DNA of 64,000 nucleotides from a virus (Duplodnaviria > Heunggongvirae > Uroviricota > Caudoviricetes): IMG/VR virus record IMGVR_UViG_3300020060_000009. One strand, written 5' to 3'. The translations under genes were made by a program, and so were the position numbers. Of the stretch, positions 3,902 through 28,103 are shown piece after piece. The notes below the pieces were generated by a model. The model was not told the DNA's origin, made no database searches, and saw only the letters and a list, made by a program, of their open reading frames with translations. The stretch's first letter is position 1; each line of letters opens with the position of its first letter.

Positions 3902-4111
3902 ATATTATCAATTATAAACTAATCGCCTTCTAGGATAATGTTATTTGGTTTCATAGTTCTTCTTCCAGTGCTATACATATCAACGCACGACGCGCTAGGA
4001 TGCCTCTATATATAAGAGTGCCTTCAACATCTCCGATGGTTTCCGCACTCGCTATTCGTGACTCCCAAAAAGCAACTTCTTCTTCTGTATGTGGCTTTGG
4101 GGCATCTTCGT

Positions 4112-4363
4112 TCATAAGTTCACCTTGTACTCGACTACTTTTATTGTTTCTGGGTCAGGTTTTGGATGAAATTGCATCGCGGAAGACAATGCCTTCTTGG
4201 GAGATAGATATGCCTGCACCCCACGCTTCACATATTTAGGCTTACCGTTGTGGCCAAGCGGATGCCAAAACTCCCCTGTAGATTTATCAATTAGAACGTA
4301 TATTGGCTTCACGCTGTCCCTGCTCCCCTTCTCCGACGTATGGCTTACGTCGCTTGCCGTCAT
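4112..4363 (-). CDS. hypothetical protein (internal start of ORF 4112..4492)
   Basis: C-terminal 84 aa from an internal Met looks protein-like (lysine-rich). The N-terminal part of the long ORF overlaps 4287..4577. Confidence 0.25.
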   Translation of the reverse strand: MTASDVSHTSEKGSRDSVKPIYVLIDKSTGEFWHPLGHNGKPKYVKRGVQAYLSPKKALSSAMQFHPKPDPETIKVVEYKVNL

Positions 4364-4577
4364 CTTGTTTTGCCTCTGCCACTTTAATGGCTTCTGCCAA
4401 ACCTTTTCTAGAACTCCTAAGAGCGTTAAAACGTTCTTTTTCTTCTTCTGTAATAATAGGAGCATTATTAATAGCCACCTGTACAGCTCCAAGCAATGCT
4501 CTCAGCTCATGTACGCCAACTGCAATGACATATTGTATCTTATTCTGTGGCGAATATTCTTCGTGCCTATATCTCAT
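4287..4577 (-). CDS. hypothetical protein
   Basis: 96-aa ORF. Overlaps an alternative ORF at 4112..4492, so only one of the two long frames is likely real. Confidence 0.3.
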   Translation of the reverse strand: MRYRHEEYSPQNKIQYVIAVGVHELRALLGAVQVAINNAPIITEEEKERFNALRSSRKGLAEAIKVAEAKQDDGKRRKPYVGEGEQGQREANIRSN

Positions 4578-4855
4578 ATCTTTATGTTCATTTCTTGTAA
4601 TTTTTCTATAAAATCATCATAAATAGTTTCGTAGTCATCTGTCTCATAACGACTAGCTAACTTTACTAGACGGCTGCTAATAGCGCTACCAACACGACCA
4701 CGAATACTGACATTGCCATCAGGTAAGCAAGTTCCAGAAAGAATTGTATTTTTTGTTGGGTCCACTACAATAGCAATTCTAATAGTGTAATTAGACTGTG
4801 GTGAATAAGCCACTAAATCACCCTTACCCAGTGTAGAGCCAAGAGCGTCTTTCAT
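4574..4855 (-). CDS. hypothetical protein
   Basis: 93-aa ORF; stop overlaps the upstream start. Confidence 0.45.
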   Translation of the reverse strand: MKDALGSTLGKGDLVAYSPQSNYTIRIAIVVDPTKNTILSGTCLPDGNVSIRGRVGSAISSRLVKLASRYETDDYETIYDDFIEKLQEMNIKI

Positions 4856-5820
4856 TACTTTATCTCCTTCACGTAACGACCCTTAATTCTGTCTTCTTCA
4901 CTGTAATAATTACCATACTCACGCTTAGCCTTAAACAATGTGTCAAGTAGCTTACCGTCGGTGTCTTTAAGTTTTAACTGACCCGACTTTGTTCGCGCTG
5001 GAGGCGTTCCTGTGGAGAATGAAATGTAAGTACGATCTTTCAATTCTTCTTTTAAAAATGTTTCAAGGTCTTCTGGCAAACCATTCTTGTGGGTGTAAGT
5101 GCTTAGGCTAATCCATGCTGTCATTTTAACTGGCTTTTCTAGTTTACGATATTTTGTTGCCTTACGTGAACCCCAGCGATAACTGCTGTAACTCTCTTCG
5201 ACTTCATAAGTCTCCAGAGTATCCCATACTTCGCCAAGACAAATATCAGTCTGGGTAAGAGTAGAATAAACACCTCCTATTTCCCAGTTCTTAGTCTTTT
5301 TAGCCTTTTTGAGGTCTGACTTTTGTTTCATGTCAGCTATTGCTTCTTTATAGGCTTCCATGTTTTCATGAATAAACCCAGGAACACCGCCCTTACGAAC
5401 GAACATAACTTTCTCTCTTATCACGCCCATGTCGATATGGCTATTGCGTATAAGATCAACAAGCAAAGCATCGTTCACGCCGATAATAAACTTTATGCCA
5501 TCTTTCTCAACTTCACAAGCTAAGAACGACAAACGGCCACCCTGTGATGAACCCCCAGCAGACTTAAGGATTTTTACAGTGAAGCCACCATTGTCGAATG
5601 TCTTAACGTCAGGCTCATATATTTTGGTATATTCTTTCTTAGCATAGTCATAGTTACGATCACGCGCCCAGTCCTTAGCAGATTCTAGACCTCTTTTATC
5701 ACCATGTTCTACAACGTATCCTGTAAATGTCCAAGTACTAGGCGATGTCTTTATTGCGACATCTATCTTGTCCATCATTTTCCAGCCATTATATGACATT
5801 ATAGATTCTCCAAAACCCAA
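4855..5820 (-). CDS. hypothetical protein (321 aa)
   Basis: Long ORF with no recognisable catalytic motif. Confidence 0.5.
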   Translation of the reverse strand: MGFGESIMSYNGWKMMDKIDVAIKTSPSTWTFTGYVVEHGDKRGLESAKDWARDRNYDYAKKEYTKIYEPDVKTFDNGGFTVKILKSAGGSSQGGRLSFLACEVEKDGIKFIIGVNDALLVDLIRNSHIDMGVIREKVMFVRKGGVPGFIHENMEAYKEAIADMKQKSDLKKAKKTKNWEIGGVYSTLTQTDICLGEVWDTLETYEVEESYSSYRWGSRKATKYRKLEKPVKMTAWISLSTYTHKNGLPEDLETFLKEELKDRTYISFSTGTPPARTKSGQLKLKDTDGKLLDTLFKAKREYGNYYSEEDRIKGRYVKEIK

Positions 5821-6119
5821 CCTGCAACAAGTTCTTCAGCTCGATCACGACCATCGTAACGATTATCATAAGTCTTTTTAGCCAATGCTTTTAATTCTTC
5901 AAGATCAAGAATCCAACCATCATAATCACCGTCCCAACAAGAACAACCATTAGAATCAATCCAAGTATACTCACCATCTCTTACAAATAGTGAGGATGTC
6001 TCTTCTTCATAGTCTTCACTTGTATCATGAGAAACTAAAAGTTGTCCAAACTTCTCAGCCATCTCTTCTTCTCGACTCATTTTAGAGTCCCAATTGTGTC
6101 TATATGTTACTGGTTTCAT
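5799..6119 (-). CDS. hypothetical protein
   Basis: 106-aa acidic ORF. Confidence 0.45.
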   Translation of the reverse strand: MKPVTYRHNWDSKMSREEEMAEKFGQLLVSHDTSEDYEEETSSLFVRDGEYTWIDSNGCSCWDGDYDGWILDLEELKALAKKTYDNRYDGRDRAEELVAGWVLENL

Positions 6120-6331
6120 ATATTATTCTTAAACCCTCTGACGCCCAATTGATCTTTTGGGACAATCACGTCTTCGTATACTTTAACTATTTTTAACCAA
6201 GCATCTTCATTTTTAAGCTTGACTTGATTACCCTGCTTTATCAAGTCATCCTGTTCAACCCAAGTTGTCATCTGGCGACCAGTAGTAATAGACTCTAGGT
6301 CAATCTGGACCATTAAAGGAGAACTACTCAT
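6116..6331 (-). CDS. hypothetical protein
   Basis: 71-aa ORF, translationally coupled. Confidence 0.4.
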   Translation of the reverse strand: MSSSPLMVQIDLESITTGRQMTTWVEQDDLIKQGNQVKLKNEDAWLKIVKVYEDVIVPKDQLGVRGFKNNI

Positions 6332-6738
6332 TAGTTTTGATTACCTTGTTCTCTACTGGCGCGAGTCACCCACTGAATAACTTCAATAGTTTTAGGTTCT
6401 ACTTCAAGAATTGGACCATCCCATTCGCTAGAGTCCCAGCTATCGTAAAGACCAGTCTTTAAGAAGTAACGCATGTCGCTTCCCCAACCAACAGTCATAA
6501 CACAACGCATGTTGTGGTCGCCACCCTCTTCACCGTCGAAGAACTCTTTACATTTTAGTGTTACTTCTTGGTCATTCCCTATCTTTTTAAAAGTAATAGG
6601 AAATGTTCCTTCTCGCCAAAATTCAAACTCGTCTGTAAAAGGAAGCTTAATAGGGAGATCAGGAAACATTTTTTCAATCAAAATAGCTTCGTTAATAGCT
6701 GCCTGTAGTTGATCGACTGTAAATGTTGTCTTACTCAT
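6331..6738 (-). CDS. hypothetical protein
   Basis: 135-aa ORF. Confidence 0.45.
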   Translation of the reverse strand: MSKTTFTVDQLQAAINEAILIEKMFPDLPIKLPFTDEFEFWREGTFPITFKKIGNDQEVTLKCKEFFDGEEGGDHNMRCVMTVGWGSDMRYFLKTGLYDSWDSSEWDGPILEVEPKTIEVIQWVTRASREQGNQN

Positions 6739-6837
6739 TACTTTCCCCTTTTGCTAATTTAGCCTTTTTACAATCTCCACGCTTATGAACAATTCCGCAG
6801 TAAACGTGCCTATATTTACGATTTACATTACTAGCCA

Positions 6838-7161
6838 TTAGATTCTCTCATATTCTGTGCGTTGCACTTTTGCTGCCTTCACCTCATATAGTTCTCCATC
6901 AAGTTCTCCACCATCGTAAGAAGCGTACCAACCTTCCTTGCGAAAGAATTGATCGCCGACCTTAAACACTACCCAAAACTCGTCACCAGAACCTTCACCA
7001 CCGTACTCATCAACAAACTTTAAAGTTCCAAAACCTGTAACTTCTATATCTTCTTGTTCGCCTTTTAGATCGTAGTAAACACCACCACCATAAGTTGATT
7101 CATAACCAGCTTCTTCAAATTCACTTATTTTCTCTTCTACTTCTTTTGCTGTAAAACTCAT
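6838..7161 (-). CDS. hypothetical protein
   Basis: 107-aa acidic ORF. Confidence 0.45.
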   Translation of the reverse strand: MSFTAKEVEEKISEFEEAGYESTYGGGVYYDLKGEQEDIEVTGFGTLKFVDEYGGEGSGDEFWVVFKVGDQFFRKEGWYASYDGGELDGELYEVKAAKVQRTEYERI

Positions 7162-7170
7162 ATATACCCT

Positions 7171-7938
7171 TTATAATTTTATTAGTTTATTACTATTATC
7201 TTTATGAACTTGTACATAATTAACATCCGGCGACCATAGCGCTGCGAGATTCTCGACAATAAATAATGCGAACCAACCTCTAGTAAGCGATGTAACTGTT
7301 CTGCGGAGTGCCCATGCGTAAGCTCTACGAGGGCTATAGGTATAGTTGGACGGAATTACCAAACGCTCCAAAGCTGTAGCATATACCTCTTCTCTTACAC
7401 ATTTAAGCTTATCCTCAAATGGCATAGCCTCCCATTTTGATTTATCTACTTTTACTTCTTCGTCATCTGCTAATATTCTTTCGTAAAGTGGAGTGTCATA
7501 GTAAGCAACAGAAGCATGGATAGAATCGTGAACATAAATTCTGACAACCTTATCATTAAAGAACTCACCTGCCATCTGATTAAGATTAGCTTTTTTATTA
7601 CCGTGAATTTCTAGCCATATCTTATAAAGCACTTTATAAAGAGGCCCTATAAGCTTTGCGCCATTCTCTTGCATTAACATAATATCTCTGGCGTGTTTTT
7701 CCCATGTGCCGTTGCGCAAATCCCAAAATATATGAGACACCTTAATGGAATAAAGTTCATCTAAACTAGCAGTTCTATCAACATCACTAAAATATTCCTT
7801 TAATGACTCGTGACTAAAAGGGTCATTACCACCCTTTTTAGGTTTCATGACTTCATCAGTGAAATAATCAACGTCCTGCGGAGTGCGACCAATATCAATA
7901 TGCTGTACTAGAGCAGTTGAGCCCACCAAGATTTTCAC
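7171..7938 (-). CDS. hypothetical protein (255 aa)
   Basis: ORF with a possible DVDYF Asp pair, but no secure family assignment. Confidence 0.45.
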   Translation of the reverse strand: MKILVGSTALVQHIDIGRTPQDVDYFTDEVMKPKKGGNDPFSHESLKEYFSDVDRTASLDELYSIKVSHIFWDLRNGTWEKHARDIMLMQENGAKLIGPLYKVLYKIWLEIHGNKKANLNQMAGEFFNDKVVRIYVHDSIHASVAYYDTPLYERILADDEEVKVDKSKWEAMPFEDKLKCVREEVYATALERLVIPSNYTYSPRRAYAWALRRTVTSLTRGWFALFIVENLAALWSPDVNYVQVHKDNSNKLIKL

Positions 7939-8483
7939 GAAACAAAGTCTCTGTATCCACGCATTAACAATCTCTTTAAGAAATTAGGGCGCTTAGTCTT
8001 GGGGACAGGTGTTACTTGGCTCTTAACTAACCCAACTGTATACTCGATTCTTTTAAGAGTCTGTAGCTCTTGAGAATCTGGCTTATAAGGTGAAACAGTG
8101 TTACAGTCATCGTAATCATCGTTGTCTTCATAGCCAAATAAGTTAAACGGAGCAAATATCTCTCGTTTCTGCTCGTCACTTGCATCAAACGGGACAACCG
8201 CCAATGCTGTAATAGAATAAGCGCTAATCTCATTTACACCCTCGTCAATGTAATATTGTGAATAAATACGAGCACTTTTTAAATATTCATGTAAGTTTCT
8301 GATTTGTTCAGAGTTTTCTGCTTCCAGAACTACCACAGTTCTCCTGTAGTTGTCCGCAAATTGATTACTACCAGCAACACCTTGCAACATCATAGCTGCA
8401 TGAACAGCTTGAGCTGCTGCTTTACCCGCACTCATATTAAGTTCTTTGTTCAGTACAACGTATAGTATTGGATTTTCTCTCAT
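7935..8483 (-). CDS. pth2: peptidyl-tRNA hydrolase, PTH2 family
   Basis: ILYVVLNKELNMSAGKAAAQAVHAAM aligns to the PTH2 signature ([25 protein letters not shown] in human PTRH2). The following beta-strand region is also conserved. Carries a C-terminal ~60-aa acidic extension. Confidence 0.75.
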   Translation of the reverse strand: MRENPILYVVLNKELNMSAGKAAAQAVHAAMMLQGVAGSNQFADNYRRTVVVLEAENSEQIRNLHEYLKSARIYSQYYIDEGVNEISAYSITALAVVPFDASDEQKREIFAPFNLFGYEDNDDYDDCNTVSPYKPDSQELQTLKRIEYTVGLVKSQVTPVPKTKRPNFLKRLLMRGYRDFVS

Positions 8484-8537
8484 ACTACTATTGTACGAGC
8501 TTGTGGTTAAAAAAGCAATACCTTTTTTAGATTTTCG

Positions 8538-9335
8538 TTAAACTAATCCCCATCGTGCAAGCTGTTCAAAACCTCCGAGGTGTTCTATATATTGTCTAGC
8601 AATCCCCACTATTTCCGAGTATTCCTTGCCATCAATCTTCTCGTCACCAATTGCACAATGAAGTTCAACAACTTCACCTGTCTCTTGCGCTTTAAGATGT
8701 GCATAAATATTCACAGCTACATCCGCTTTAGATAAGTCTTTACCGTGTAGACCACCACCCGTAACAGCTTCACCCATATCAGAGCCTAGTTTGCGATTTG
8801 TAGCACCAGTGTCGGCATCTAGCCCACCTGTCCAATAACCGAGTGGGTTAATGACAAGATCATGCTTATACAGCTTAGACAAAAATTCGTTTAAAACAAA
8901 TGTAGAAGCATAAGACTGACAAACGATTAACCTATTGCCAGCTAAAATATACTTACCATCTGTTGGGAAATTATCGTAGATTGTTTTAGCAATATCAGAT
9001 AAATCAGAAATATCTTTTTTAATAGGGACACCCTTAAAGATACCATTATCTCCAGCACGAGTTTCATCCTCTTGGTTCTTAGCTAACTCTACATCTTGAG
9101 GAACCTCAATATATTCAACTGTCAGATTACCAGCAATACGATTAACTATATCTTTGACAATCCAAGTGTCAATATTCACCGATGTCTCGCCAATGATATA
9201 CACCTTACCATGTCCAATGAGAACCTCGAATGCGCATCTTGGTTCATCCTCTATCTCATAAGCATAATCAACTAATGCGCCAGCAATACGATCTGCAACT
9301 TTATCTGGGTGTGATGGGTTTACTTTTTCTATCAT
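8538..9335 (-). CDS. metK: compact S-adenosylmethionine synthetase (MetK/MAT-like, ~266 aa)
   Basis: PSHPDKVADRIAGALVD matches the MetK N-terminal SEGHPDKxxDQISDAxLD motif. RAGDNGIFKG matches GAGDQGLMFG. TGGGLHGKDLSKADVAVNIYAH matches [23 protein letters not shown]. About 100 aa shorter than bacterial MetK. Start taken at the internal Met preceded by an AGGA ribosome-binding site. Confidence 0.7.
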   Translation of the reverse strand: MIEKVNPSHPDKVADRIAGALVDYAYEIEDEPRCAFEVLIGHGKVYIIGETSVNIDTWIVKDIVNRIAGNLTVEYIEVPQDVELAKNQEDETRAGDNGIFKGVPIKKDISDLSDIAKTIYDNFPTDGKYILAGNRLIVCQSYASTFVLNEFLSKLYKHDLVINPLGYWTGGLDADTGATNRKLGSDMGEAVTGGGLHGKDLSKADVAVNIYAHLKAQETGEVVELHCAIGDEKIDGKEYSEIVGIARQYIEHLGGFEQLARWGLV

Positions 9336-9345
9336 ATATTCCTCT

Positions 9346-10248
9346 CTAAAAACTATAATTAGGGTCGCCAAGTTGTGCAACATTTATTCCGTATACATCA
9401 CGAAGCATATTCGCTACTGCTACACGGTCATCGAACCATAAGAGGACATTGTATTTGCCAACAATATATTTCTCTATCATATCTGCTTTGACTAATGTGT
9501 CCTTAACTTGGTTGCCACGTTCATCTACATGTTCACTTCCACGCATATAGAGTTCATCGTATTCAATATCATTCTTCTCTAACCAAGCTTCTGTCTCTGG
9601 GCGACATACTTCATCACGGCCACTAAATATGAATAACTTTGCATGATTGATTAAAGTAACACCATCTAACATATGTGCGACACCTAAGTTGATATCATCG
9701 TTGCCAACTTTGTGCCACTCATAAGGAGAACGGTCTTTTGGGCCTAGCGTAAGAGTGCCGTCTAAGTCTGACACTACTACAAAAGGCAGTTCTGGGTCAT
9801 ATTTCAAGAAGGTGGGTAGCTTTTTAACAAAGCTATGGAACATCCCACGAATTACCTGTTCTCCTACCGAGTTATCTCTTGCTTTGTCACGTTCAATTAG
9901 TTCAGCGAGCGGGACATCGAGGAAATCCTTCTGCTCAACAGTAGCGCTAAATTCTCGCGCGATTGCGGAGAGTCCAGTGACATGTTTTGGATTGAGATTT
10001 GTATCGGAGCTAACAACATTTTTTCCTTGTGAAAGGGATTGACGAATGAGCCTATTTCTTTCTTTGAGAACAATCGACTCATCTCCTCTTTTGTGATTAT
10101 ATATCCCGTCTCGAAACAGACGTCCATCTCTTCTGATGTCATCTTTTTCAACACGAACCCACCCTTTTTCAACGAGTTCTTTGGCATAAGTGGTCTTTCC
10201 GCTTGCGGGCAACCCGCGCAGAATAAGAACTTTTAGTTTTTTTGTCAT
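9346..10248 (-). CDS. pnk: polynucleotide 5'-kinase/3'-phosphatase (T4 Pnk-like)
   Basis: N-terminal P-loop GLPASGKTT (kinase domain). C-terminal HAD motif VVVSDLDGTL (DxDGT) typical of the T4 Pnkp phosphatase domain. Confidence 0.8.
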   Translation of the reverse strand: MTKKLKVLILRGLPASGKTTYAKELVEKGWVRVEKDDIRRDGRLFRDGIYNHKRGDESIVLKERNRLIRQSLSQGKNVVSSDTNLNPKHVTGLSAIAREFSATVEQKDFLDVPLAELIERDKARDNSVGEQVIRGMFHSFVKKLPTFLKYDPELPFVVVSDLDGTLTLGPKDRSPYEWHKVGNDDINLGVAHMLDGVTLINHAKLFIFSGRDEVCRPETEAWLEKNDIEYDELYMRGSEHVDERGNQVKDTLVKADMIEKYIVGKYNVLLWFDDRVAVANMLRDVYGINVAQLGDPNYSF

Positions 10249-10254
10249 TTTTGT

Positions 10255-11538
10255 TTATACTTTTCCTTCTTCTTCCATGTCTAGAGTTCCCTCTGCCATG
10301 TTTTGGTTATCGTAACCCACGAAGGTAGCGCTCTTAGCTTTAAGAGTAAAGGGAGCAATTCCTTCTGCGCGGATTACCACGCCCTCATCACAAGGGCTAT
10401 CTTTATCTAGTGGGACAGCTCCTGGGAAGCCATCTTCTTTGTAACGGTGCATTTCTTCATGTCCAGCAAAGTCAATCCAGTCTTCTGGTTTAAACTCTTT
10501 GTACTTACCGCGCCATAGTAGTGGGACTACTTTCAGTTCACGGTCACGACAGAACTCTGCGATCTGGTCATAAGTCAGGTCGGCAACAACACCCTCTGGG
10601 TTAATCATTCCTACACGGTAAACGTATAAGTCTGCAACTCCCTGTGGAATCTGGTATGTGTACTTGCTCTGTAGTGGAGCACCCTCTGCTGTCCAGCCAA
10701 TAAGCTCACCATAGACCAAGTAGCCCTGTGGAATTTTGCCCATAAGCTTCTCACCTTCTGTGGACCAGATATCTGTGTCATAGAAGTGAACGTGGCTTGG
10801 ATTATTCTTGTCCTTAATAACACGGCGTGAACCGTAAACGTAGTCATACTCTTTTTCTTGGACAACTGCACCAATCTTCTTGGCAACTTTGTCCTTCCAT
10901 GTCATCTTGCGCTGCACGATAGTATTTGCAATACGAATAGATGTTCCGTGTAGTTTCTGTGTAACAGTAACATCTGCATTTTCAGGAATAACATGTGAGT
11001 TTTTGAAGTAGTTATCTGTGTCATAATGCTGTGGCAAGAACTTCTCATCAACACGGCTAAAGATTTTCTTGTTCTTCTCTAGTATTGTTTGTGCGCGAGT
11101 TGCCTTACGAATAAACTTCTTACAAATTTCATGGTCGCCAATGCGGTCAAACGTATCACCCTCAACGAATAATGAAGTATCTAACTTCTTAATGTAAGAG
11201 AGCGCACTTAGCTTGACCACAAGGGCATCCGAGCGATGACCACGCAGTTTAAGAGAGCGGATGTGTCGGTTATCTTCAAGATATCCAGACTCAGCCTGAT
11301 TCTCGTTCTTATCGTTGTGACGGTATAAGTTATTCTTGTAAGCAAATTCCTCTGAAAGCTGCGTACCTGCGGTAAATACCAATGCGAGGTCTCCGTAGTC
11401 AGAGGTCTTTGCTACAAGTGCTTGGCTTCCCAAAACTTGAAGTCCTACAAGGTTGTCTAAACCTTCTAGAGCCACAGGCTTTGGCAAGCGCACTATCACA
11501 CCTGCGTAGTCACTGTTTTCTGGTTCTAATAGTTTCAT
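10255..11538 (-). CDS. rnl: RNA ligase (Rnl2-like nucleotidyltransferase)
   Basis: Motif I QKLHGTSIR matches the KxHGxN covalent nucleotidyltransferase motif of T4 Rnl2-type ligases. Adjacent to pnk, the classic tRNA-repair pair. Confidence 0.65.
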   Translation of the reverse strand: MKLLEPENSDYAGVIVRLPKPVALEGLDNLVGLQVLGSQALVAKTSDYGDLALVFTAGTQLSEEFAYKNNLYRHNDKNENQAESGYLEDNRHIRSLKLRGHRSDALVVKLSALSYIKKLDTSLFVEGDTFDRIGDHEICKKFIRKATRAQTILEKNKKIFSRVDEKFLPQHYDTDNYFKNSHVIPENADVTVTQKLHGTSIRIANTIVQRKMTWKDKVAKKIGAVVQEKEYDYVYGSRRVIKDKNNPSHVHFYDTDIWSTEGEKLMGKIPQGYLVYGELIGWTAEGAPLQSKYTYQIPQGVADLYVYRVGMINPEGVVADLTYDQIAEFCRDRELKVVPLLWRGKYKEFKPEDWIDFAGHEEMHRYKEDGFPGAVPLDKDSPCDEGVVIRAEGIAPFTLKAKSATFVGYDNQNMAEGTLDMEEEGKV

Positions 11539-11603: not shown

Positions 11604-12383
11604 TTATAAACCAGCATGCCAAACATTACTACGGCCTAAGGGAGTTAAGTTAATCACCATAGAATCATTAGTAGCTTCAACCCATAATGTTTTGCCGTTC
11701 TTCTCTGTTAGATGAGTGACAGGTACGAACCAATCTATATAATTTTTCCAACCTAATTGCCTAAATTCTATTGCCATATTTACATCAGGACCGAGTCCAT
11801 TGCTTGAACCAAATTTGTGCATCTTATATAAATCAGCTCTGATTAAAGCACAATACAATCCACAGGCATCCACCTCTTCTACCTCGGTTGTCCCTACTTT
11901 GTTTTTCATAGATGTTATCTTTCGAGGATTATCTATATTATCAACTTTCCATGCGCCAACATATGGTGTTCCCCACCGTCCTAGTTCAACACCAGTAACA
12001 ACACCAACTGCTGGATAATTTTGGACATCGTTAACAAGCCAAGATAAAGCATTTTCAGGTAAAATTCCATCATCTTCAATTGAGAATATCCACTCAATAT
12101 CTTCTCCAATCAAACTTTTAATCTGATTATGAATTGAGCTAATTCTAGCCCTGCGTTGTGGGATTGTAACGGCTGAATCACCCCAGTTATTTGACCTAAC
12201 GCATAGTACGTCATTTAGGGGCAATGACGCAAGTTTATTATGAACTTTGATATATAAGTCATTCGAGCCGTCAACGACCACTAGAAGCGCTGTACGCTCC
12301 TCGTATGACTGGTTTAATAGTGATTCAAGTACAAGATCAAGGTAGGTCAGGCGACTTACTGGCAGTATTGTTAATATTTTCAT
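11604..12383 (-). CDS. family 2 glycosyltransferase
   Basis: VVVDGSND and a DxD-like EDDG. Overall GT-A fold pattern. Confidence 0.6.
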   Translation of the reverse strand: MKILTILPVSRLTYLDLVLESLLNQSYEERTALLVVVDGSNDLYIKVHNKLASLPLNDVLCVRSNNWGDSAVTIPQRRARISSIHNQIKSLIGEDIEWIFSIEDDGILPENALSWLVNDVQNYPAVGVVTGVELGRWGTPYVGAWKVDNIDNPRKITSMKNKVGTTEVEEVDACGLYCALIRADLYKMHKFGSSNGLGPDVNMAIEFRQLGWKNYIDWFVPVTHLTEKNGKTLWVEATNDSMVINLTPLGRSNVWHAGL

Positions 12384-12567
12384 TTTGTATTTTTAGTATT
12401 TCATTGTATTGTTTTAATATATCTTTTGATTCACGAACAGCTTTATCCCATTCACGATTTGGTGATTTGGCGCTAATAGCCTTGATATAAAGAGGCTCTG
12501 ACAAAACAGCGCGTAATAGCACAGCTAGTTTCGCATCAATTATTTCTAATCTCTCTTCTACTGTCAT
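12337..12567 (-). CDS. hypothetical small protein
   Basis: 76-aa ORF overlapping the neighbouring gene ends. Confidence 0.3.
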   Translation of the reverse strand: MTVEERLEIIDAKLAVLLRAVLSEPLYIKAISAKSPNREWDKAVRESKDILKQYNEILKIQNENINNTASKSPDLP

Positions 12568-13265
12568 TTTGTTTTAATTTTCTTAAATTTTTTGCCATTA
12601 ACTATCTCGAGCATTGTGTGGTCACCATAAGGCGTTCCATCCGCATAGGTAGAGAATGTATCAATACACCAAATATCCTTTGCAACTTCCCAACAAGTTT
12701 CACTAGGAGTATGACCAAACACCTGGGGAATTTGCGCATAACTTCCCCAACTTGGACGAACCCATAGAGGAGAATGATCTTGCCATAGATCATCCATCTC
12801 GTTAGTACCATTCCAGCCGTGTGCTATACCAGCATGTGAAAAAGTTACACCATCCTCTTCTAGAGTAATAGGTAGGCCAAGTAACCAGTCTTTTAGGTAT
12901 TTATACGCTGGCGCATTGATAGAAAGTTGTGTTACGGCGTTATAACCACTTTGTAGACTTGGAGTTTTGTTGACGTATATAAAATCATGGTTACCAAGAA
13001 CAAGCTTTACTTTGTCTTCGTTAGCTTGTTGCAACATAAAAAGTCTATGCCATGTATCAATGGATTCAAGACCGTCTTTACCAAAGTCGTCAGCATAATC
13101 TCCAACAAAAATAACACGATCATACTTAGGAAGCAGTTTTTCAACTCTATCTATTACAAATTGTTTCGTATGCACATCACCGACTGCTAATATTTTCATC
13201 TTGTTCCTTAATAAGTTTTTGTTCTTGATATTCGTTATATCTTCTTGCACCCTCTTCTGCATCAC
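12564..13265 (-). CDS. calcineurin-like metallophosphoesterase
   Basis: Motifs GDVH, GDYADD and GNHD in order, the classic Ser/Thr phosphatase / phosphoesterase signature. Confidence 0.75.
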   Translation of the reverse strand: MMQKRVQEDITNIKNKNLLRNKMKILAVGDVHTKQFVIDRVEKLLPKYDRVIFVGDYADDFGKDGLESIDTWHRLFMLQQANEDKVKLVLGNHDFIYVNKTPSLQSGYNAVTQLSINAPAYKYLKDWLLGLPITLEEDGVTFSHAGIAHGWNGTNEMDDLWQDHSPLWVRPSWGSYAQIPQVFGHTPSETCWEVAKDIWCIDTFSTYADGTPYGDHTMLEIVNGKKFKKIKTK

Positions 13266-13419
13266 CCTTGATTTTTTCTCTAGACTCGATTATTAAATCA
13301 ATAATCTTATTATTTTCGTCAACAGAAACTTGAGCTATTTCGTTACGTTGAAACAGAGAACGACTTTCCCCATCTACCATGTAAAAAGCATCTGTAGTCA
13401 TGTAACTACGCAAGGTCAT
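13177..13419 (-). CDS. hypothetical small protein
   Basis: 80-aa ORF. Confidence 0.3.
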   Translation of the reverse strand: MTLRSYMTTDAFYMVDGESRSLFQRNEIAQVSVDENNKIIDLIIESREKIKGDAEEGARRYNEYQEQKLIKEQDENISSR

Positions 13420-14440
13420 TGATCAGTTTCTCCCATTTTCCCTCAAGCTCATAATTAGAGAACTCTTCGTACCCTATATTATATGCTATCTTCTTCTCTG
13501 CTTGCAAGTCCTTTTTTGCTAAAAAGTCTAATCTCTGCCCTAAAGTAGCGTGGTTAACAGTGTAAAGATCAATTAAAGTTCTCGTCATAAACTTACCTGT
13601 TTCCGTAGCGGGGGTTAACCAATGTTGAGGTAATATTTTATCATTGGGCGAAATATCGGTCATAAGAACGGGCATTCCGGCACAGAGCGCTTCTGTCATT
13701 GGCAAACATTGTCCACCGTATCGTCTAGGAAGAATCATGGCATCAAAATCACGATACAATTCCACTTCATTTTCTGGACTTGATGTGTCAATTGTAATTC
13801 TTGGATCGTTATAAGTATTTACAACACCACCAACTTGTGTCTTAATTACTAATTCAAAGTCTTCACCACTATAGCGCATAGCTCTAATGAGGTCTTCTGT
13901 CCCATTACGATCATTTACTGCTTGTCTCCCCATGATATGCAAGAAGCGTTTTCTGCCCGTGCGTTTTAGGTTATGTTCTCTGACTTCTTTAAAGTCATCA
14001 ACAAACACAGGCGTGGGGAGATATTCGACACTGCCCCATAATGAACGTGCATCTGCTAAATGCCATCTACTAGGAGAAATAAGTTTATCGGGTAAAGTTA
14101 GTTCAGGTTGACGAAGATAATCAGCGAACTCCCAGTTGTATTGGTTGATTGTTTTGACTCCCATATGCTTTGCAAGGTCTACAAATCTAGTATTGTAAAA
14201 AATCTCACAAGTGATAACAATATCTATACCGCGAAGCCACTCTATAACCTGCTGGTTAGTCGGGAATCCGTTTATCTCCGTGACACTATATGTAGCATAG
14301 GTATCTGGATATTGTTTATTGCCGTTAAAAAATGAGCTGTTAATAAGCATAATCTCGTCTGGGCGAATCATCCGTGCTAAGTTGCGAGTCTGATTGCCCA
14401 AGCCAGTTCTATCACTTCGTGCTATTAGTCCAATTCTCAT
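13406..14440 (-). CDS. putative glycosyltransferase (GT-B like)
   Basis: 344 aa with a Rossmann-like N-terminus and an E-x7-E-like C-terminal region. Weak assignment; sits in a glycosylation cluster. Confidence 0.45.
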   Translation of the reverse strand: MRIGLIARSDRTGLGNQTRNLARMIRPDEIMLINSSFFNGNKQYPDTYATYSVTEINGFPTNQQVIEWLRGIDIVITCEIFYNTRFVDLAKHMGVKTINQYNWEFADYLRQPELTLPDKLISPSRWHLADARSLWGSVEYLPTPVFVDDFKEVREHNLKRTGRKRFLHIMGRQAVNDRNGTEDLIRAMRYSGEDFELVIKTQVGGVVNTYNDPRITIDTSSPENEVELYRDFDAMILPRRYGGQCLPMTEALCAGMPVLMTDISPNDKILPQHWLTPATETGKFMTRTLIDLYTVNHATLGQRLDFLAKKDLQAEKKIAYNIGYEEFSNYELEGKWEKLINDLA

Positions 14441-14646
14441 CTTATGCGCTCCACTTTAGATATATCTACAAATATATGCAGTTTCATCCAACAATCAAGT
14501 CTACTCGGAGGTTTAACCCTTGTAGGATTTGCAATTGGCATAAACCCAGGTATCTCAACAATTTTTCTTTTGCCACAACCAATGCAAACCACAATGCGTT
14601 CAACTCGATTAACGTTTTGTTTTCTCACTTGATATTTAGCTCTCAT
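14437..14646 (-). CDS. small Cys-containing protein
   Basis: 69-aa ORF with CIGCGKRK. Confidence 0.3.
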   Translation of the reverse strand: MRAKYQVRKQNVNRVERIVVCIGCGKRKIVEIPGFMPIANPTRVKPPSRLDCWMKLHIFVDISKVERIR

Positions 14647-15203
14647 TTTGTCGCCTCAAATACGAGGCTCTCTTTTGGCCGTGTATCATATTCACTACTT
14701 TCCAGTTGTACTACTTTCCGGAACCCCGCTTCTTCCAATACTTTCGCCATTCTTGCTGGTGTATATAGAGAATCCCTTGTGCTGTAGCCAGAGATAGCGA
14801 AACAAAGCTTATCGTCAATAGAACCCTCATCAATCGGTATGTCTTCACTTCGCCCCTCCTCATAAGATTTAAATACTTTTAGCAAATCCATATCAATCAC
14901 AACCAGCTTTGCTCCTGGCTTTAATGTTCTGTGGATGTTAATTAGCGCTTTATGCACAAGATAGTCGTTCATTGTACATAGCACATGGTTAATAACACCG
15001 CCGTCGAAACGCTCGATGTATTTATCTTCTGGTGTTTGTGTCATGTCCCAGTAATGGAAACTATCATTGCCAATGCTGCCATTGACAAAGATAGAATCAA
15101 AGTTATACCACTTCTCTTCCTCAGTACTTTCTTTTAAATCTGGTCCAGAACCGTAGTTAGCAAATTTAAACGGAAACATTTTTGCCCCACATGTTTGTAG
15201 CAA
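14643..15203 (-). CDS. class I SAM-dependent methyltransferase (putative)
   Basis: Rossmann-like core HVLCTMNDYLVHKALINIHRTLKPGAKLVV resembles the Methyltransf_11 C-terminal motifs. Confidence 0.45.
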   Translation of the reverse strand: MLQTCGAKMFPFKFANYGSGPDLKESTEEEKWYNFDSIFVNGSIGNDSFHYWDMTQTPEDKYIERFDGGVINHVLCTMNDYLVHKALINIHRTLKPGAKLVVIDMDLLKVFKSYEEGRSEDIPIDEGSIDDKLCFAISGYSTRDSLYTPARMAKVLEEAGFRKVVQLESSEYDTRPKESLVFEATK

Positions 15204-15648
15204 TCAGTTGTGCTCTTTTTTCATTTGCTATCTTTATAGCATGTTTTTTGTTTTTAGCCAAAACATCTATCCCCATAACCCATTCACCATTGTGCAATTT
15301 ATCTTCGTCTTTACCATGTGACCATCTTTCTCCGGTGTGGAAATGAGGGTATTCATGCTTAATAAAATTTGGTGTATCTAAATCCCATGAATATCTATCG
15401 CTACCGTGTTCATACACATCAAAGTCAGCAGGGTTTTGAGGCAATTCGCCGTTTTCAAACATATTAACATAAAAAATCTTATAACCATTTTGAATATAAC
15501 TTGGTGCTTCTGGATTAAGCGGATATTCTTCTACTCTTCTCTCGTAGAAAGCACCAGCAAAAAGTTCCGCCTTTTTTTCATCAGTAAATACACCAACTAT
15601 ATGATAGTCAGAGTAATCACCTTCCGTCACTACATAAGCATTATTCAT
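15166..15648 (-). CDS. hypothetical protein
   Basis: 160-aa ORF. Confidence 0.4.
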   Translation of the reverse strand: MNNAYVVTEGDYSDYHIVGVFTDEKKAELFAGAFYERRVEEYPLNPEAPSYIQNGYKIFYVNMFENGELPQNPADFDVYEHGSDRYSWDLDTPNFIKHEYPHFHTGERWSHGKDEDKLHNGEWVMGIDVLAKNKKHAIKIANEKRAQLIATNMWGKNVSV

Positions 15649-16286
15649 ATTTTATAAAACCTTTCCGGTACATACATTAAATATGGGTCTAAAATACCTG
15701 TCCCTATTTGTGAGCTGTAACACATAAGCGCTCTTATCTTATCTGCCATACGAGATTTCTCTTGAATTGTACGGGCTGGCTTGTATGCAATACCTAATTC
15801 TTTTAACCTAGTTGGAACAAGCTCTGGTTCTGTGACACGAATTGGCAAGTCCTCCCATAGCATGACTGGCAAGTCGGTCTCTAAGCTAAGAACTGCGTCG
15901 CTTACCCTTAAATGGTCTGGGTGCCCTAACCCAAGTGGGGCATAAATTCCTTCATATTCTCCACCATCTACAATTCTTTGCAGCACTTCTGCTATCTCTG
16001 ATTGTGTCACATCTTCGCCGTATTGTCCATCAGGAAAATCTAGGTCTACATTTGTCGCGCTTAATAAGGCAGTGGCAGCATCATTCTCTCGGCGACGTTC
16101 TGAAACTGCATCTTGGGCATTTTTGAACCCGCACTTTAAATCGTAAGGGGTTACTACAGTCTCCGAAGCATCTGGATATCCACCGAAAACGGTAACAACA
16201 GTAGTATCAGGGCGTTCTGCCATGAATTGACCAGCGCTAAGGATAGCGTCATCGAAGTGGGGGCTAATTATGAGTAACTTATTCAC
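15645..16286 (-). CDS. PIG-L / LmbE family N-acetylglucosaminyl deacetylase
   Basis: ISPHFDDAILSAG near the N-terminus and GHPDH, the PIG-L zinc-binding motifs. Confidence 0.7.
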   Translation of the reverse strand: MNKLLIISPHFDDAILSAGQFMAERPDTTVVTVFGGYPDASETVVTPYDLKCGFKNAQDAVSERRRENDAATALLSATNVDLDFPDGQYGEDVTQSEIAEVLQRIVDGGEYEGIYAPLGLGHPDHLRVSDAVLSLETDLPVMLWEDLPIRVTEPELVPTRLKELGIAYKPARTIQEKSRMADKIRALMCYSSQIGTGILDPYLMYVPERFYKI

Positions 16287-16388
16287 TTTCTACCTCTGCC
16301 AAAACAAAATATGATGGCGTCTCTGTTTCGCCTAACGGGATTGGTGGTTTAATGATCTCCCATTTGCTTCCATCATCAGCTGTAATTA

Positions 16389-17939
16389 TCATATCTTTTC
16401 CATCCAGAATCTAATATTATGGTTTTCCAACTCCTCACTTTTTACACTAAACTTACATTTACTATAAAAACCAGTTGTCTTTCCGTAGTGCTTTGTCGGG
16501 TCAAAGAAGTCCATAGACTGAATATCAAACCCTCTTACATGTGTCGGGTCAATCCATAAGAACTCTGCTTTCCAGCCTGGAGTCTGTATATACAATATCC
16601 CACCTGGCTTCAAAATACGATGACATTCTTCCAGAAACTTAATAACGCCATGATCTTCGCCGATATAAGGAGGAAGATGCTCAATAACATCAACTGCTTT
16701 GATCTCGCTAGCAGAATTGTCTTCAAATGGATAAGGAAATTTCATCAAATTATGGACAACATCTATGTTCGGCAAGTCGATCATATCCACATTAATCCAA
16801 CCCGGAAATGCGTCTTCACCTGCCCCTAAGTTTATTCTTAAATCTGGCTTAATTTCTATTGCTGTTGAATCTTTATCAATTGGTTTAATAGGTGACAATG
16901 GTTTGCCTTTCATTTCTTGTGTTGCTGTTATTGTTGTCGCTTTGTCAGAAACCTCAAAAACGTCGCCTGTGTGGGACTTTGGATCACCAAACGCCCCTTC
17001 GTCGTCTAAAGTATCTAAGAGGGCTTGTAGGCGCTTAGAATACGTCTGAGAGGACTTTACGAACTCGTGTCCTGCCTTGCGAATTGCTTCACGCTCTTCA
17101 TCATGCTCTAAATAGTAATTTATCTTCTCATCAAGCTCTTCAAAATTTCCGTATTCATAAAAGACTGCATTTACATTTTCTTGAAAAAGATCAGCCACAC
17201 CTTCAATCCGAGGATATATAGTGAAAGCACCGCGACCAATACTTTCAAAGAGACGATCTGACGTATAGTTTTTGTGTTTGAATCCAATATTGACAGAGTC
17301 ACCAACAGCGATTTTAGAGTTTGCATAAAGTTGATTAAGCTCTGTACCCCTGACTGTTCGTTGTGGATGTCCAAACTTTTTATATCTTTCTCCATACTTA
17401 TCCTCCAAATGTTTTACTAACTCGTAACGATAAGCCCATTCTTTGTGGCCGTATTCTGCACCTCCACCAACAAAGATGACATCTCCGCTTAATGAAGCAT
17501 CATTGTTTGGAGGGAGCATGATACACTCTTGTTCAAACACGCCGGGAAGAAGCCAGTAATGATTAATTCCTTTACTGTCGAAGAAAGCTTGTGATTCAGG
17601 ATCGCCATCTGCACTAAATACATATTCAGTTCTCCAAAACGGATCGCTCTCAATACCAGATTGTCTAGAAAGGCCAACATAAAGATCAAGGTGATAAGAA
17701 GCTGTTGGAATACCTCGCTCCTTTAATATCGCAAGATCAGCAAGTGTTACCATTTTGCCCCAAGTACGTGTATATAGAAATAGATCGGTGTCCTCTGGCA
17801 CTCTTTGAAGCCAAGATGGGTCATGATGAGCAAGTTCTTGGATGCGAACAACTTCATGACCCATGCTCTCAAGGGTCTTAGCGATATGGTTTTCTGTAGT
17901 GAAGTCTACACTATAATTTCCAACGTATGTTATTTTCAT
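16389..17939 (-). CDS. bifunctional glycosyltransferase / SAM-dependent methyltransferase (predicted)
   Basis: 516 aa. N-terminal 300 aa are GT-like. C-terminal VDVIEHLPP...ILKPGGILYIQTP is a Methyltransf_11/23 signature. Confidence 0.55.
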   Translation of the reverse strand: MKITYVGNYSVDFTTENHIAKTLESMGHEVVRIQELAHHDPSWLQRVPEDTDLFLYTRTWGKMVTLADLAILKERGIPTASYHLDLYVGLSRQSGIESDPFWRTEYVFSADGDPESQAFFDSKGINHYWLLPGVFEQECIMLPPNNDASLSGDVIFVGGGAEYGHKEWAYRYELVKHLEDKYGERYKKFGHPQRTVRGTELNQLYANSKIAVGDSVNIGFKHKNYTSDRLFESIGRGAFTIYPRIEGVADLFQENVNAVFYEYGNFEELDEKINYYLEHDEEREAIRKAGHEFVKSSQTYSKRLQALLDTLDDEGAFGDPKSHTGDVFEVSDKATTITATQEMKGKPLSPIKPIDKDSTAIEIKPDLRINLGAGEDAFPGWINVDMIDLPNIDVVHNLMKFPYPFEDNSASEIKAVDVIEHLPPYIGEDHGVIKFLEECHRILKPGGILYIQTPGWKAEFLWIDPTHVRGFDIQSMDFFDPTKHYGKTTGFYSKCKFSVKSEELENHNIRFWMEKI

Positions 17940-27933: not shown

Positions 27934-28006
27934 TGGCTCCCTCGCTAGGACTCGCACCCAGATAACAGCCTTCAAAGGGCTGCGTCCTACTTTAGACGAC
28001 GTGGGA
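27934..28006 (-). tRNA. tRNA-Gln (anticodon UUG)
   Basis: Anticodon stem CAGCC/GGCTG with loop CTTTGAA. T-arm CTGGG-TGCGAGT-CCTAG. CCA encoded. Confidence 0.6.
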
Positions 28007-28011
28007 ATATT

Positions 28012-28098: not shown

Positions 28099-28103
28099 GT
28101 ATT

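Follow-up and report, generated by a model that had tools for sequence, protein, structure and literature searches.

Positions 11604-17939 of an uncultured marine phage genome of ~99 kb hold what is best read as one instance of a widespread, phage-restricted and modular glycan-assembly locus. The block encodes three glycosyltransferases (GTs), two methyltransferases and one sugar deacetylase. We propose that the enzymes act as soluble proteins in the cytoplasm and furnish phage (virion) proteins with a methylated glycan that is de-N-acetylated in part, a reading to which we assign a probability of about 40%. The window is the whole analysed stretch of 64,000 nucleotides.

Gene content and enzyme identities

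The original prediction described a six-gene glycosylation and methylation cluster. All six ORFs are present on the minus strand, but the block holds 11 ORFs in total; the five others are small (the 160-aa DUF7336 protein and ORFs of 37, 69, 80 and 76 aa):

16389..17939, minus strand: CgeB-like GT-B fused to a class-I SAM methyltransferase, 516 aa; core component 1
16279..16392, minus strand: 37-aa ORF lying between PIG-L and the fusion; public assemblies also call it as a gene; no family match
15645..16286, minus strand: PIG-L/LmbE-family zinc deacetylase; accessory cassette
15166..15648, minus strand: DUF7336 protein, 160 aa, accessory; Pfam match of 26.7 bits over the N-terminal 32 residues only; no homologue among the relatives examined
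14643..15203, minus strand: class-I SAM methyltransferase, 186 aa; accessory cassette, paired with PIG-L
14437..14646, minus strand: 69-aa ORF, basic (pI 10.7) with a CxxC motif, from its sequence
13406..14440, minus strand: GT4 (GT-B), retaining-type, BshA/MshA/PimA-like, 344 aa; core component 2
13177..13419, minus strand: 80-aa ORF, conserved in the relative L019
12564..13265, minus strand: calcineurin-like metallophosphoesterase of PPP/ApaH/NinI type, 211-233 aa, by Pfam
12337..12567, minus strand: 76-aa ORF, weakly conserved in L019
11604..12383, minus strand: GT-A (GT2-like) glycosyltransferase, 259 aa, by Pfam

A Pfam profile search supported each of the GT, methyltransferase, PIG-L and phosphoesterase assignments, with the 186-aa methyltransferase just under threshold. 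The 516-aa protein is, as predicted, a GT-methyltransferase fusion: it has two Pfam domains (Glyco_trans_1_2, 86.8 bits, PF13524, which we take to be the YkvP/CgeB family; Methyltransf_11, 24.6 bits) and two folded domains in its AlphaFold model, the stretch that links them (residues 321-364) being disordered. It has ~800 homologues and matches the PHROGs glycosyltransferase phrog_28745 (E 2.5e-37). In Foldseek, the fused GT gave generic GT4 matches; methylmannose polysaccharide mannosyltransferase (7qsg) was second-best, T4 alpha-glucosyltransferase was among the equally good matches, and SdgB and PglA were also found. The 344-aa GT4 lies at the Pfam threshold (Glycos_transf_1, 26.4 bits) and matches a PHROGs glycosyltransferase (E 1e-11). 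Its GT-B fold was confirmed by the AlphaFold model (pLDDT 95) and by Foldseek, where the chlorovirus NY-2A GT 3oy2, BshA, PimA and MshA were the top matches and no T4-type GT appeared within the top 50. BshA and MshA were top structural matches of both GT-B enzymes. The 259-aa GT-A scored just over the gathering threshold (Glycos_transf_2, 23.9 bits); its R, DG, EDD and GLGPD positions are conserved in eight homologues, the third motif EDY of TAGT/JGT-type enzymes is missing, and no match was found in isolated phages. It is specific to the marine lineage and is possibly the initiating GT or a branching one.

The PIG-L deacetylase (Pfam, 41.7 bits) carries the reported motifs PHFDD and HPDH. 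Among solved structures, the teicoplanin pseudoaglycone deacetylases Orf2*/Dbv21 come nearest to it (E 7e-11), and from its sequence it is predicted to de-N-acetylate GlcNAc. The 186-aa methyltransferase matched Methyltransf_11/23 at ~21 bits, while its homologues in relatives have precomputed Pfam hits at E <=1e-5; with the methyltransferase domain of the fusion it shares one short methyltransferase-motif stretch (E 0.007).

A conserved core and an exchanged cassette

Searching IMG/VR with the GT4 family gave at least 580 loci, and co-occurrence was counted in the best 80. The CgeB-like GT lies ~3 kb upstream of GT4 on the same strand in 48 of these 80. In every lineage examined, a methyltransferase is fused to or adjoins this first GT; other lineages have the GT half unfused, followed by a separate FkbM methyltransferase (L010, L115). 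The core, made up of the 344-aa GT4 and of the CgeB-like GT with the methyltransferase next to it or fused to it, is common to hundreds of uncultured phages. Among isolated phages, homologues occur only as GTs of Streptomyces phages, for example Yara gp28 (hhalign 99.3%), encoded together with a methyltransferase where the structural/lysis block ends. A search of 185,579 cellular species genomes for the CgeB-like GT family gave one match, which lies on a MAG contig of 3.4 kb.

Between the two core GTs lies a hypervariable cassette that is exchanged among close relatives, so that related phages would display different glycans. The PIG-L and methyltransferase pair recurs as an in-module cassette in two phage lineages: it is present in the window, in L022 and L023, where homologues of the 186-aa methyltransferase adjoin PIG-L, and in seven freshwater-lineage loci. 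Genes resembling this methyltransferase also occupy the corresponding cassette of L055, L098, L107 and L114. PIG-L is absent from L001, L002 and L019; the L019 cassette comprises an epimerase, a GT47-like gene and a Methyltransf_24 gene, and that of L024 an NTP_transf_3 nucleotidyltransferase. Furthermore, a PF11397 (GT60) GlcNAc-transferase (E 1e-54) is found as an addition in 26 sister-lineage loci; we take this Pfam entry to be the family of the enzyme that adds the first GlcNAc to the cytoplasmic protein Skp1.

The proposal of a functional glycan module is supported, and a methylated, de-N-acetylated sugar is a reasonable product given the methyltransferase beside the first GT throughout. 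The pathway is not self-contained, as had been supposed, because no sugar-nucleotide biosynthesis gene lies in 11604-17939; relatives carry NTP-transferase or epimerase cassettes. The assignment of two further enzymes to it was not supported. The metallophosphoesterase (Metallophos, 54 bits; NinI-like Ser/Thr phosphatase in PHROGs; ApaH-like in NCBIfam; nearest solved structure the PP2A catalytic subunit, E 1e-3) adjoins the module only in its own marine lineage, which supplied both of the loci that carry it among the best 80, and its membership in the pathway is doubtful. The MetK-like ORF at 8538-9383, cast as a dedicated SAM supplier, is a compact variant, similar to MetK in the N- and C-terminal parts only, and is absent from every relative examined. 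Both are probably bystanders.

Protein or DNA as the acceptor

In the proposed mechanism, the enzymes would draw on host nucleotide sugars and SAM. GT4 (or GT-A) would add a HexNAc, PIG-L would strip its N-acetyl group to leave a free amine, and sugars would be methylated by the fused methyltransferase as well as by the small one paired with PIG-L. The resulting short, methylated, partly de-N-acetylated oligosaccharide would be assembled directly on a macromolecular acceptor with no lipid carrier, phage structural proteins being the likeliest. Several findings point to a protein: PIG-L is nearest to a deacetylase acting on peptide-linked GlcNAc, the fused GT belongs by its Pfam match to PF13524, the family of the protein-glycosylating CgeB, the PF11397 enzyme joins the sister-lineage loci, and the Streptomyces phage homologues border structural genes.

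Such virion glycosylation would be analogous to, not homologous with, known viral systems. A064R of chlorovirus PBCV-1 is a GT-GT-methyltransferase fusion in capsid glycosylation, in which the methyltransferase methylates the sugar added by the GT to which it is fused. As proposed here, virus-encoded cytoplasmic GTs build a methylated glycan, and the 344-aa GT finds its top PDB match in a chlorovirus (NY-2A) GT. However, the GT domains of A064R are GT-A, whereas the present fusion is GT-B, and PBCV-1 infects a eukaryote; the two are alike in architecture and not by homology. In the spore crust of Bacillus subtilis, a self-assembling shell, CgeB (317 aa) attaches sugar to the protein CgeA at Thr112 (PMC13577073). 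Its size and domain layout are about those of the N-terminal GT half of the fusion, which also matches PF13524 strongly, but CgeB has no fused methyltransferase. Mycobacteriophage virion O-glycosylation is known for Che8 (gp108-110), Corndog (gp35-38) and Myrna (Freeman et al. 2023, via PMC12363180 and PMC11256854). As far as it is described in these two articles, it likewise uses a soluble phage-encoded GT set and a methyltransferase with no lipid-carrier machinery, and the Che8 glycosylation genes lie far from structural genes. Unlike that system, the present phage is marine, its cassette is hypervariable, and its cluster has no detectable sequence or profile homology to the validated Che8 and Corndog enzymes. 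Nor do its capsid and tail-tube candidates have a recognisable acceptor tail in the form of an obvious long Ser/Thr-rich C-terminal extension (tail tube ...TSSTDSIS; capsid candidate ...ASVAVS).

Other points also weigh against a protein acceptor; DNA, too, had been put forward as a target. The operon that contains the cluster is long and of early/middle type and includes genes for replication and RNA repair, while the structural genes lie elsewhere, and a ParB-like/TET-JBP/TAGT module occurs on the same strand of the same genome, ~0.5 kb beyond the left end of the window. The Tet_JBP protein (65.5 bits) has its HxD, H and R residues intact. The ParB-like gene lies upstream of TET and overlaps it (phrog_723, E 2.6e-7; Noc 7ol9, E 0.048), and TAGT lies downstream (PF20691, 36.7 bits, over threshold; motifs R..DDD..EDY; phrog_842, beta-glucosyl-HMC-alpha-glucosyltransferase, E 8e-9). 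These genes are predicted to form a base-J-like thymine glycosylation system. In the main rival explanation, which we regard as somewhat unlikely, the ParB-like/TET-JBP pair oxidises thymine to 5hmU, TAGT adds the first sugar, and the cluster extends and tailors this DNA glycan against host nucleases. The DNA would then carry a methylated, amine-bearing oligosaccharide, and exchange of the cassette would be the outcome of an arms race against modification-dependent restriction. The T4 alpha-glucosyltransferase match of the fused GT is consistent with this, and de-N-acetylation would leave the DNA with a positively charged adduct, as is common in DNA hypermodification; protein glycans less typically carry a free amino sugar.

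All four IMG/VR contigs of the lineage carry TET and at least part of the GT block (the full GT core in three; on the 12-kb contig L029, the part seen is limited to Metallophos and GT2). Published phage 5mYOX (TET/JBP) DNA glycan clusters (Burke 2021, PMC8256090; Pyle 2023, bioRxiv 10.1101/2023.12.21.572611; O'Toole 2026, PMC13229309) hold several GTs, O-methyltransferases and epimerases, and their GT-B enzymes resemble BshA and MshA (bioRxiv 10.1101/2023.12.21.572611; PMC13229309). The present genome likewise combines ParB-like, TET/JBP and TAGT genes with multiple GTs (GT-A and BshA/MshA-like GT-B) and methyltransferases, and its relatives have sugar-activating cassettes. Unlike those clusters, it shows no C5-methyltransferase, and the texts of Pyle (bioRxiv 10.1101/2023.12.21.572611) and Burke (PMC8256090) make no mention of a PIG-L deacetylase or a GT-methyltransferase fusion. 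Moreover, known pathways are tightly clustered, whereas 12-17 kb and >20 genes, including RNA-repair and tRNA genes, separate this cluster from TET/TAGT.

Co-occurrence is confined to the phage's own lineage in either direction. In the 80 best loci (78 outside the lineage; both own-lineage contigs carry TET beyond the 10-kb flank), the 10 kb on either side of GT4 contain no TET, TAGT or ParB-like gene, and none of the 76 loci of the nearest TET relatives contains a glycan-module gene. In L115/L032, the whole GT core is kept with a P-loop protein after TET in place of TAGT. The 344-aa GT also had no T4-type enzyme among its top structural matches. All cluster enzymes are acidic (pI 4.6-5.8), unlike TET (7.7) and TAGT (8.6), a weak argument. 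Judged by gene neighbourhood, the glycan cluster behaves independently of the TET module across lineages, which slightly favours virion or protein glycosylation, and the ParB-like/TET-JBP/TAGT genes are best read as a separate DNA system.

Envelope and soluble products

The third target originally named, the host surface, is disfavoured because the cluster enzymes have no TM segments and no priming GT or flippase was found, nor a polymerase. Working on the cytoplasmic side of the membrane, the enzymes might decorate a host wall polymer or a lipid-linked precursor, much as teichoic acid is decorated by TarM, TarS and TarP, and so block superinfection or alter host recognition during infection. 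Wall teichoic acid is indeed modified by GT4 and GT2 enzymes of broadly this type, TarP is prophage-encoded, and the structural search with the fused GT also returned SdgB and PglA. A CHAP+VanY endolysin and an r1t-type holin in the genome hint at a Gram-positive-type host. We nevertheless consider envelope remodelling improbable. A virulent phage, as first suggested, is plausible: no integrase family is among the precomputed Pfam hits of the window and flanks (all but ~25 kb of the ~99-kb genome), and with no lysogeny genes seen, surface conversion would have little time to pay off. To our knowledge, phage surface-conversion systems use fewer enzymes than three or four GTs, two methyltransferases and a deacetylase, and cellular genomes are almost devoid of the CgeB-like GT family.

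A soluble product is the least probable of the readings considered. It could be a cytoplasmic polymethylated oligosaccharide like mycobacterial methylmannose polysaccharide, whose mannosyltransferase is the second-best match of the fused GT, or a GlcN-thiol precursor in the style of mycothiol or bacillithiol. GT4, phosphoesterase and PIG-L together mirror the MshA/MshA2/MshB logic of GT4, phosphatase and PIG-L, with BshA and MshA heading the matches of both GT-B enzymes. Those matches, however, are generic for GT4, the phosphoesterase is PPP/ApaH-like and lineage-specific, and no cysteine ligase or acetyltransferase was found. What the cluster shares with BshA/BshB, MshA/MshB and teicoplanin Orf2* is the implied order of adding GlcNAc and then exposing its amine, with the PIG-L catalytic motifs conserved and Orf2* the nearest solved structure. 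It differs from the thiol pathways in having no thiol-ligase or acyltransferase step and in that PIG-L is an optional cassette rather than core; unlike in those pathways, the acceptor here is likely a macromolecule.

A further likeness to the mycobacteriophages lies elsewhere in the genome: several other window genes are actinophage-like, including a Myrna gp18 homologue (56% identity), and TET has relatives in actinophages.

Layout and domain identities of the cluster

The original prediction described a six-gene, self-contained glycosylation and methylation cluster at 11604-17939. This stretch is a section of a long minus-strand operon, whose start lies near 20164 at a DNA-polymerase exonuclease-like gene; promoter and terminator scans gave results at chance level.

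Genes of the cluster in transcription order
16389-17939, minus strand: 516-aa fusion of a CgeB-like glycosyltransferase (GT) and a methyltransferase
second, minus strand: 37-aa ORF
15645-16286, minus strand: PIG-L protein, 213 aa
fourth, minus strand: DUF7336 protein, 160 aa
14643-15203, minus strand: methyltransferase, 186 aa
sixth, minus strand: 69-aa ORF
13406-14440, minus strand: GT4, 344 aa
eighth, minus strand: 80-aa ORF
12564-13265, minus strand: metallophosphoesterase
tenth, minus strand: 76-aa ORF
11604-12383, minus strand: GT2, 259 aa

All six predicted domains were backed by Pfam. Support is strong for three of them (CgeB-like GT domain, Metallophos, PIG-L), and the remaining three score at the threshold or close to it; the weak ones were also supported by AlphaFold models, and PHROGs assignments agreed with Pfam. 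Sequence-profile searches of the PDB with the GT2 and GT4 alignments returned noise only, so a fold search was needed. The 344-aa GT4 adopts a confident GT-B fold (AlphaFold pLDDT 95), with a chlorovirus GT, BshA, PimA and MshA as its best PDB matches, and the 516-aa protein was modelled as a GT-B domain followed by a disordered linker and a Rossmann methyltransferase domain. As in GT4-type retaining GT-B enzymes, two Rossmann-like domains are present in the models of both proteins (pLDDT 95 and 83), and the conserved glutamate of the C-terminal acidic motif (PRRYxGxCLPMxEA), E250, is invariant. Foldseek matched the GT-B proteins to MshA, BshA, PimA and PglA at E values of 1e-9 to 1e-11; the fold matches of GT4 do not discriminate among DNA, protein and small-molecule acceptors. 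The PIG-L protein scored 41.7 bits against a Pfam cut-off of 28.2 and carries the zinc/catalytic motifs (A/P)HxDD and HxxH as SPHFDDA and GHPDHL. Its closest solved relatives are the teicoplanin pseudoaglycone deacetylases Orf2*/Dbv21 (E 7e-11).

A methylated, de-N-acetylated glycan is a likely product, as predicted, whereas the proposed self-sufficiency and the parts assigned to the phosphoesterase and MetK need correction. Profile and family matches identify the phosphoesterase as PPP/ApaH/NinI-like, and it lies with GT2 beside GT4 in 2 of the 80 best GT4-family loci, both from the lineage of this phage. Because it is PPP/ApaH-like and restricted to its own lineage, we do not regard it as acting on sugars, and a role as sugar-phosphate phosphatase was rejected. 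MetK had been proposed as the co-located supplier of SAM. Compared with cellular MetK, the MetK-like protein is smaller by ~100 residues, and its alignment to SAM synthetases is confined to their N-terminal domain and C-terminal P-loop region. Its gene is missing in every relative examined; it was therefore dismissed as a conserved partner of the cluster, and the supplier role was not sustained.

Directly downstream of the cluster, window positions 1312-11538 hold a dense set of RNA and tRNA maintenance genes, listed here with the MetK-like gene.

Genes downstream of the cluster
10255-11538: RNA ligase
9346-10248: T4-type kinase/HAD-phosphatase PNKP
8538-9383: MetK-like protein, 265-281 aa, a compact variant
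7935-8483: PTH2 peptidyl-tRNA hydrolase
2623-3312: RlaP nucleotidyltransferase
1312-2319: CCA-adding enzyme

The window also carries 26 tRNA genes in two minus-strand blocks (27934-41007). HNH/NUMOD homing-endonuclease-like ORFs are interspersed with these blocks, and the anticodon of one tRNA call (39355-39429) is aberrant, with two bases. In one relative (locus L022, 20903-21437), the gene after the CCA-adding enzyme contains an intein with Hint domains.

A conserved core with an exchangeable cassette

Relatives share a frame of fusion, GT4, phosphoesterase, GT2 and RNA ligase, and differ in what lies between the fusion and GT4.

Content of the fusion-GT4 interval in the window and in loci of relatives
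Window: PIG-L, DUF7336 and methyltransferase
L022 and L023: PIG-L and methyltransferase
L001/L024: MobA-like nucleotidyltransferase
L002: almost empty, with the GT and methyltransferase halves as separate ORFs
L019: nine genes, including an NAD-epimerase/dehydratase, a GT47/RXYLT1-like enzyme and Methyltransf_24

The split in L002 (1191-2662), the closest IMG/VR relative at 82% identity, falls in the region of the disordered linker of the window protein. A second lineage, which carries WhiB and probably consists of freshwater actinophages, has no backbone genes in common with that of the window. It encodes an unfused CgeB-like GT, an FkbM methyltransferase and a homologue of the 344-aa GT4 (46-52% identity), accompanied by variable genes: GT2, a nucleotidyltransferase, an epimerase or a GT47-like enzyme. 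Among the 80 best GT4-family loci, a CgeB-like GT lies ~3 kb upstream of GT4 in 48, and a PF11397 (GT60) GlcNAc-transferase is nearby in 26. PIG-L was found inside the cassette in seven, four of which also have a gene like that of the 186-aa methyltransferase. By its Pfam entry, PF11397 includes the enzyme that initiates the glycosylation of Skp1, a cytoplasmic protein.

The conserved frame and core, together with the differing interval content across two lineages, therefore define a three-layer module. The core layer is the CgeB-like GT, the methyltransferase and GT4; the second is an exchangeable cassette, in which PIG-L with a methyltransferase is one recurring option; and the third comprises the lineage-specific neighbours GT2 and phosphoesterase.

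Assemblies of several public metagenomes contain the ~99-kb contig from which the window derives, and a protein identical in sequence is present in a Logan assembly. Relatives abound on contigs of 85-108 kb in metagenomes, those of Tara Oceans included, and the source samples comprise ERZ27268008, SRR7015887 and the Tara runs. The module occurs in hundreds of contigs from uncultured phages of marine and freshwater origin, and isolated phages lack it. A megablast search of 50,697 phage records with the cluster gave no match, with no isolated phage showing near-DNA similarity, and tblastn of the 344-aa GT4 and GT2 against phage records was likewise negative. Counterparts of the CgeB-like GT are essentially missing from 185,579 cellular species genomes, a scan that yielded no clue to the host, and the module appears to be mostly restricted to phages. 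No WhiB motif was found when the window was searched, so this marker does not support an actinobacterial host. Precomputed Pfam hits covering the window with its flanks, all but ~25 kb of the genome, include no integrase family. To our knowledge, experimental systems for phage-encoded glycosylation are few, namely T-even DNA glucosylation, reconstructed 5mYOX clusters and the virions of mycobacteriophages. The present locus defines a widespread, cassette-variable module that has never been studied experimentally.

The window includes a tail module of siphovirus-like type, in which a CHAP+VanY endolysin (47628-49259) and an r1t-type holin are encoded. Adjoining these two genes is one for a 175-aa protein (49570-50097) that has a membrane helix at its N-terminus and a collagen-like G-X-Y repeat. 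Elsewhere, a 344-aa protein of unknown function (33579-34613) shares 56% identity with Mycobacterium phage Myrna gp18 and Phabba, an exceptionally high value in an otherwise orphan genome, and has remoter homologues in Streptomyces jumbo phages.

Candidate acceptors of the predicted glycan

We read the cluster as a cytoplasmic, carrier-free glycan-assembly module that acts on a macromolecule. The cluster proteins are all acidic, none has a membrane segment (no 19-residue window above a Kyte-Doolittle mean of 1.4), and no Pfam family of a priming GT, flippase or polymerase is present, as would be expected of lipid-carrier Wzx/Wzy, ABC or gtrABC systems. The cassette varies around its conserved core in a manner that resembles an O-antigen locus. 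The host envelope is an improbable target by our estimate, and a soluble product is more improbable still. Of a mycothiol/bacillithiol-type pathway, which uses GT4, PIG-L and a ligase, GT4 and PIG-L are present, but neither the cluster nor the surrounding 10 kb contains a cysteine ligase (MshC/BshC), and close relatives have no PIG-L.

The acceptor that we favour, at a probability of roughly 40%, is a phage (virion) protein. The CgeB-like GT belongs to PF13524, the CgeB family. CgeB itself glycosylates the spore-crust protein CgeA (PMC13577073). The isolated-phage homologues of the CgeB-like GT are exclusively Streptomyces phage GTs, which close the structural/lysis block together with a methyltransferase. 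We also count as pointers to a protein acceptor the GT60-type GlcNAc-transferases of sister lineages and the PIG-L protein, whose nearest match uses GlcNAc linked to a peptide as substrate. Chlorovirus A064R provides an architectural parallel. In virion O-glycosylation of the Che8/Corndog actinophage type, capsid and tail-tube subunits carry glycans at their C-termini. Comparison with the validated enzymes Che8 gp108-110 and Corndog gp35-38 detected no homology (phmmer E up to 10; hhalign at most 3% probability). The capsid and tail-tube candidates bear no obvious acceptor tail: judged from sequence alone, the 168-aa tail-tube candidate ends in a short TSSTDSIS and the 737-aa capsid candidate has no C-terminal extension. 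If virions carry the glycan, capsid and tail glycosylation would reach far past laboratory-grown actinophages, and aquatic virion surfaces would be under diversifying selective pressure.

A predicted thymine modification system and DNA as a possible acceptor

Three overlapping genes for a ParB-like protein, a TET/JBP dioxygenase and a TET-associated glycosyltransferase (TAGT) lie on the same contig and strand as the cluster, at 17839-20075 of L027, a locus that reaches past the left end of the window. Window coordinates equal 17939 minus the L027 coordinate, which places the trio at ~0.1 to -2.1 kb relative to window position 1.

Enzymes of the trio, on the strand of the cluster
L027 18470-19333: TET/JBP dioxygenase, 287 aa, ~0.5-1.4 kb beyond the window's left end (PF12851, 65.5 bits)
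L027 19314-20075: TAGT (PF20691, 36.7 bits, above threshold), with R..DDD..EDY motifs visible

The HxD, H and R catalytic residues of the dioxygenase are conserved, and TAGT also matches the PHROG of the T-even beta-glucosyl-HMC alpha-glucosyltransferase. The ParB-like assignment comes from PHROGs (phrog_723, E 2.6e-7); the match to Noc was weak, and hhalign against a Gordonia phage ParB was negative. The trio is conserved in three IMG/VR relatives, and the nearest TET relatives in isolated phages are ParB-linked actinophage enzymes, one of them annotated as thymidine hydroxylase. No C5-methyltransferase was seen in the parts of the contig examined. The trio resembles a published ParB-associated thymine dioxygenase pathway leading to glycosyl-5-hydroxymethyluracil (PMC13229309; bioRxiv 10.1101/2023.12.21.572611) and is predicted to be a base-J-like system of thymine hydroxylation and glycosylation; from this match, the phage very probably modifies its own DNA. 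The compact trio offers material for testing base-J-like thymine glycosylation in phages.

DNA hypermodification, one of the originally predicted targets, thus gains a very probable route through the trio, which is separate from the cluster, and it appears doubtful that the cluster acts on TAGT-primed DNA. Cluster and TET/TAGT share a genome and a transcription direction, and among own-lineage IMG/VR contigs TET accompanies at least part of the GT block in four of four and the full GT core in three. T4 alpha-glucosyltransferase is among the structural matches of the fused GT, and de-N-acetylation would yield a cationic adduct. Published 5mYOX clusters, those of TET/JBP dioxygenases, can include several GTs, O-methyltransferases and epimerases (bioRxiv 10.1101/2023.12.21.572611). 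Here, however, the GTs and methyltransferases are not clustered with the dioxygenase: 12 kb (from GT2) to 17 kb (from the fusion) and more than 20 genes intervene, among them the unrelated RNA ligase, PNKP, PTH2, RlaP and CCA-adding enzyme genes. Nor did the GT module and TET co-occur across lineages within the 10-kb flanks compared: TET, TAGT or ParB-like genes accompanied GT4 at none of 80 loci (78 outside the own lineage), and module genes accompanied the nearest TET relatives at none of 76, eight of which had TAGT. Moreover, one related contig (IMGVR_UViG_3300004463_000109) keeps the GT, FkbM methyltransferase, GT4, phosphoesterase and GT2 without TAGT. The features of a TAGT/JGT-type DNA-initiating GT are found in the TAGT gene and not in the cluster, whose GT-A enzyme has no EDY motif, and the acidity of the cluster enzymes differs from the neutral-to-basic TET and TAGT.

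In a fuller version of the DNA reading, which we consider rather unlikely, TAGT-primed glycosyl-5-hydroxymethyluracil would be extended into a DNA-linked oligosaccharide with O-methylated sugars and free glucosamine, and cassette swaps between sister phages would allow escape from modification-dependent nucleases. Such a cationic, methylated DNA glycan would be of a kind not yet described, and methylated and amino sugars would join the chemistry of DNA hypermodification.

On the same related contig, a 163-aa Walker-A (P-loop) protein, with no family assignment at significance, follows TET in place of TAGT (L032, 10840-11331); it may represent a 5-hydroxymethyluracil-kinase-type branch of thymine hypermodification. 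Clusters of Stenotrophomonas phage DLP3 (64.6-73.8 kb) and Vibrio phage V-YDF132 (56.8-65.4 kb) were rejected as homologues, as they look analogous only, with no BLAST similarity and no Pfam-detectable TET. They encode PIG-L, WbqC or WcaG/WecE, a methyltransferase and a ~500-aa GT4, and lie immediately upstream of a ParB-like gene, after which come a gene without annotation and that of the large terminase. The methyltransferase of the DLP3 cluster was read as Erm in the DLP3 paper.
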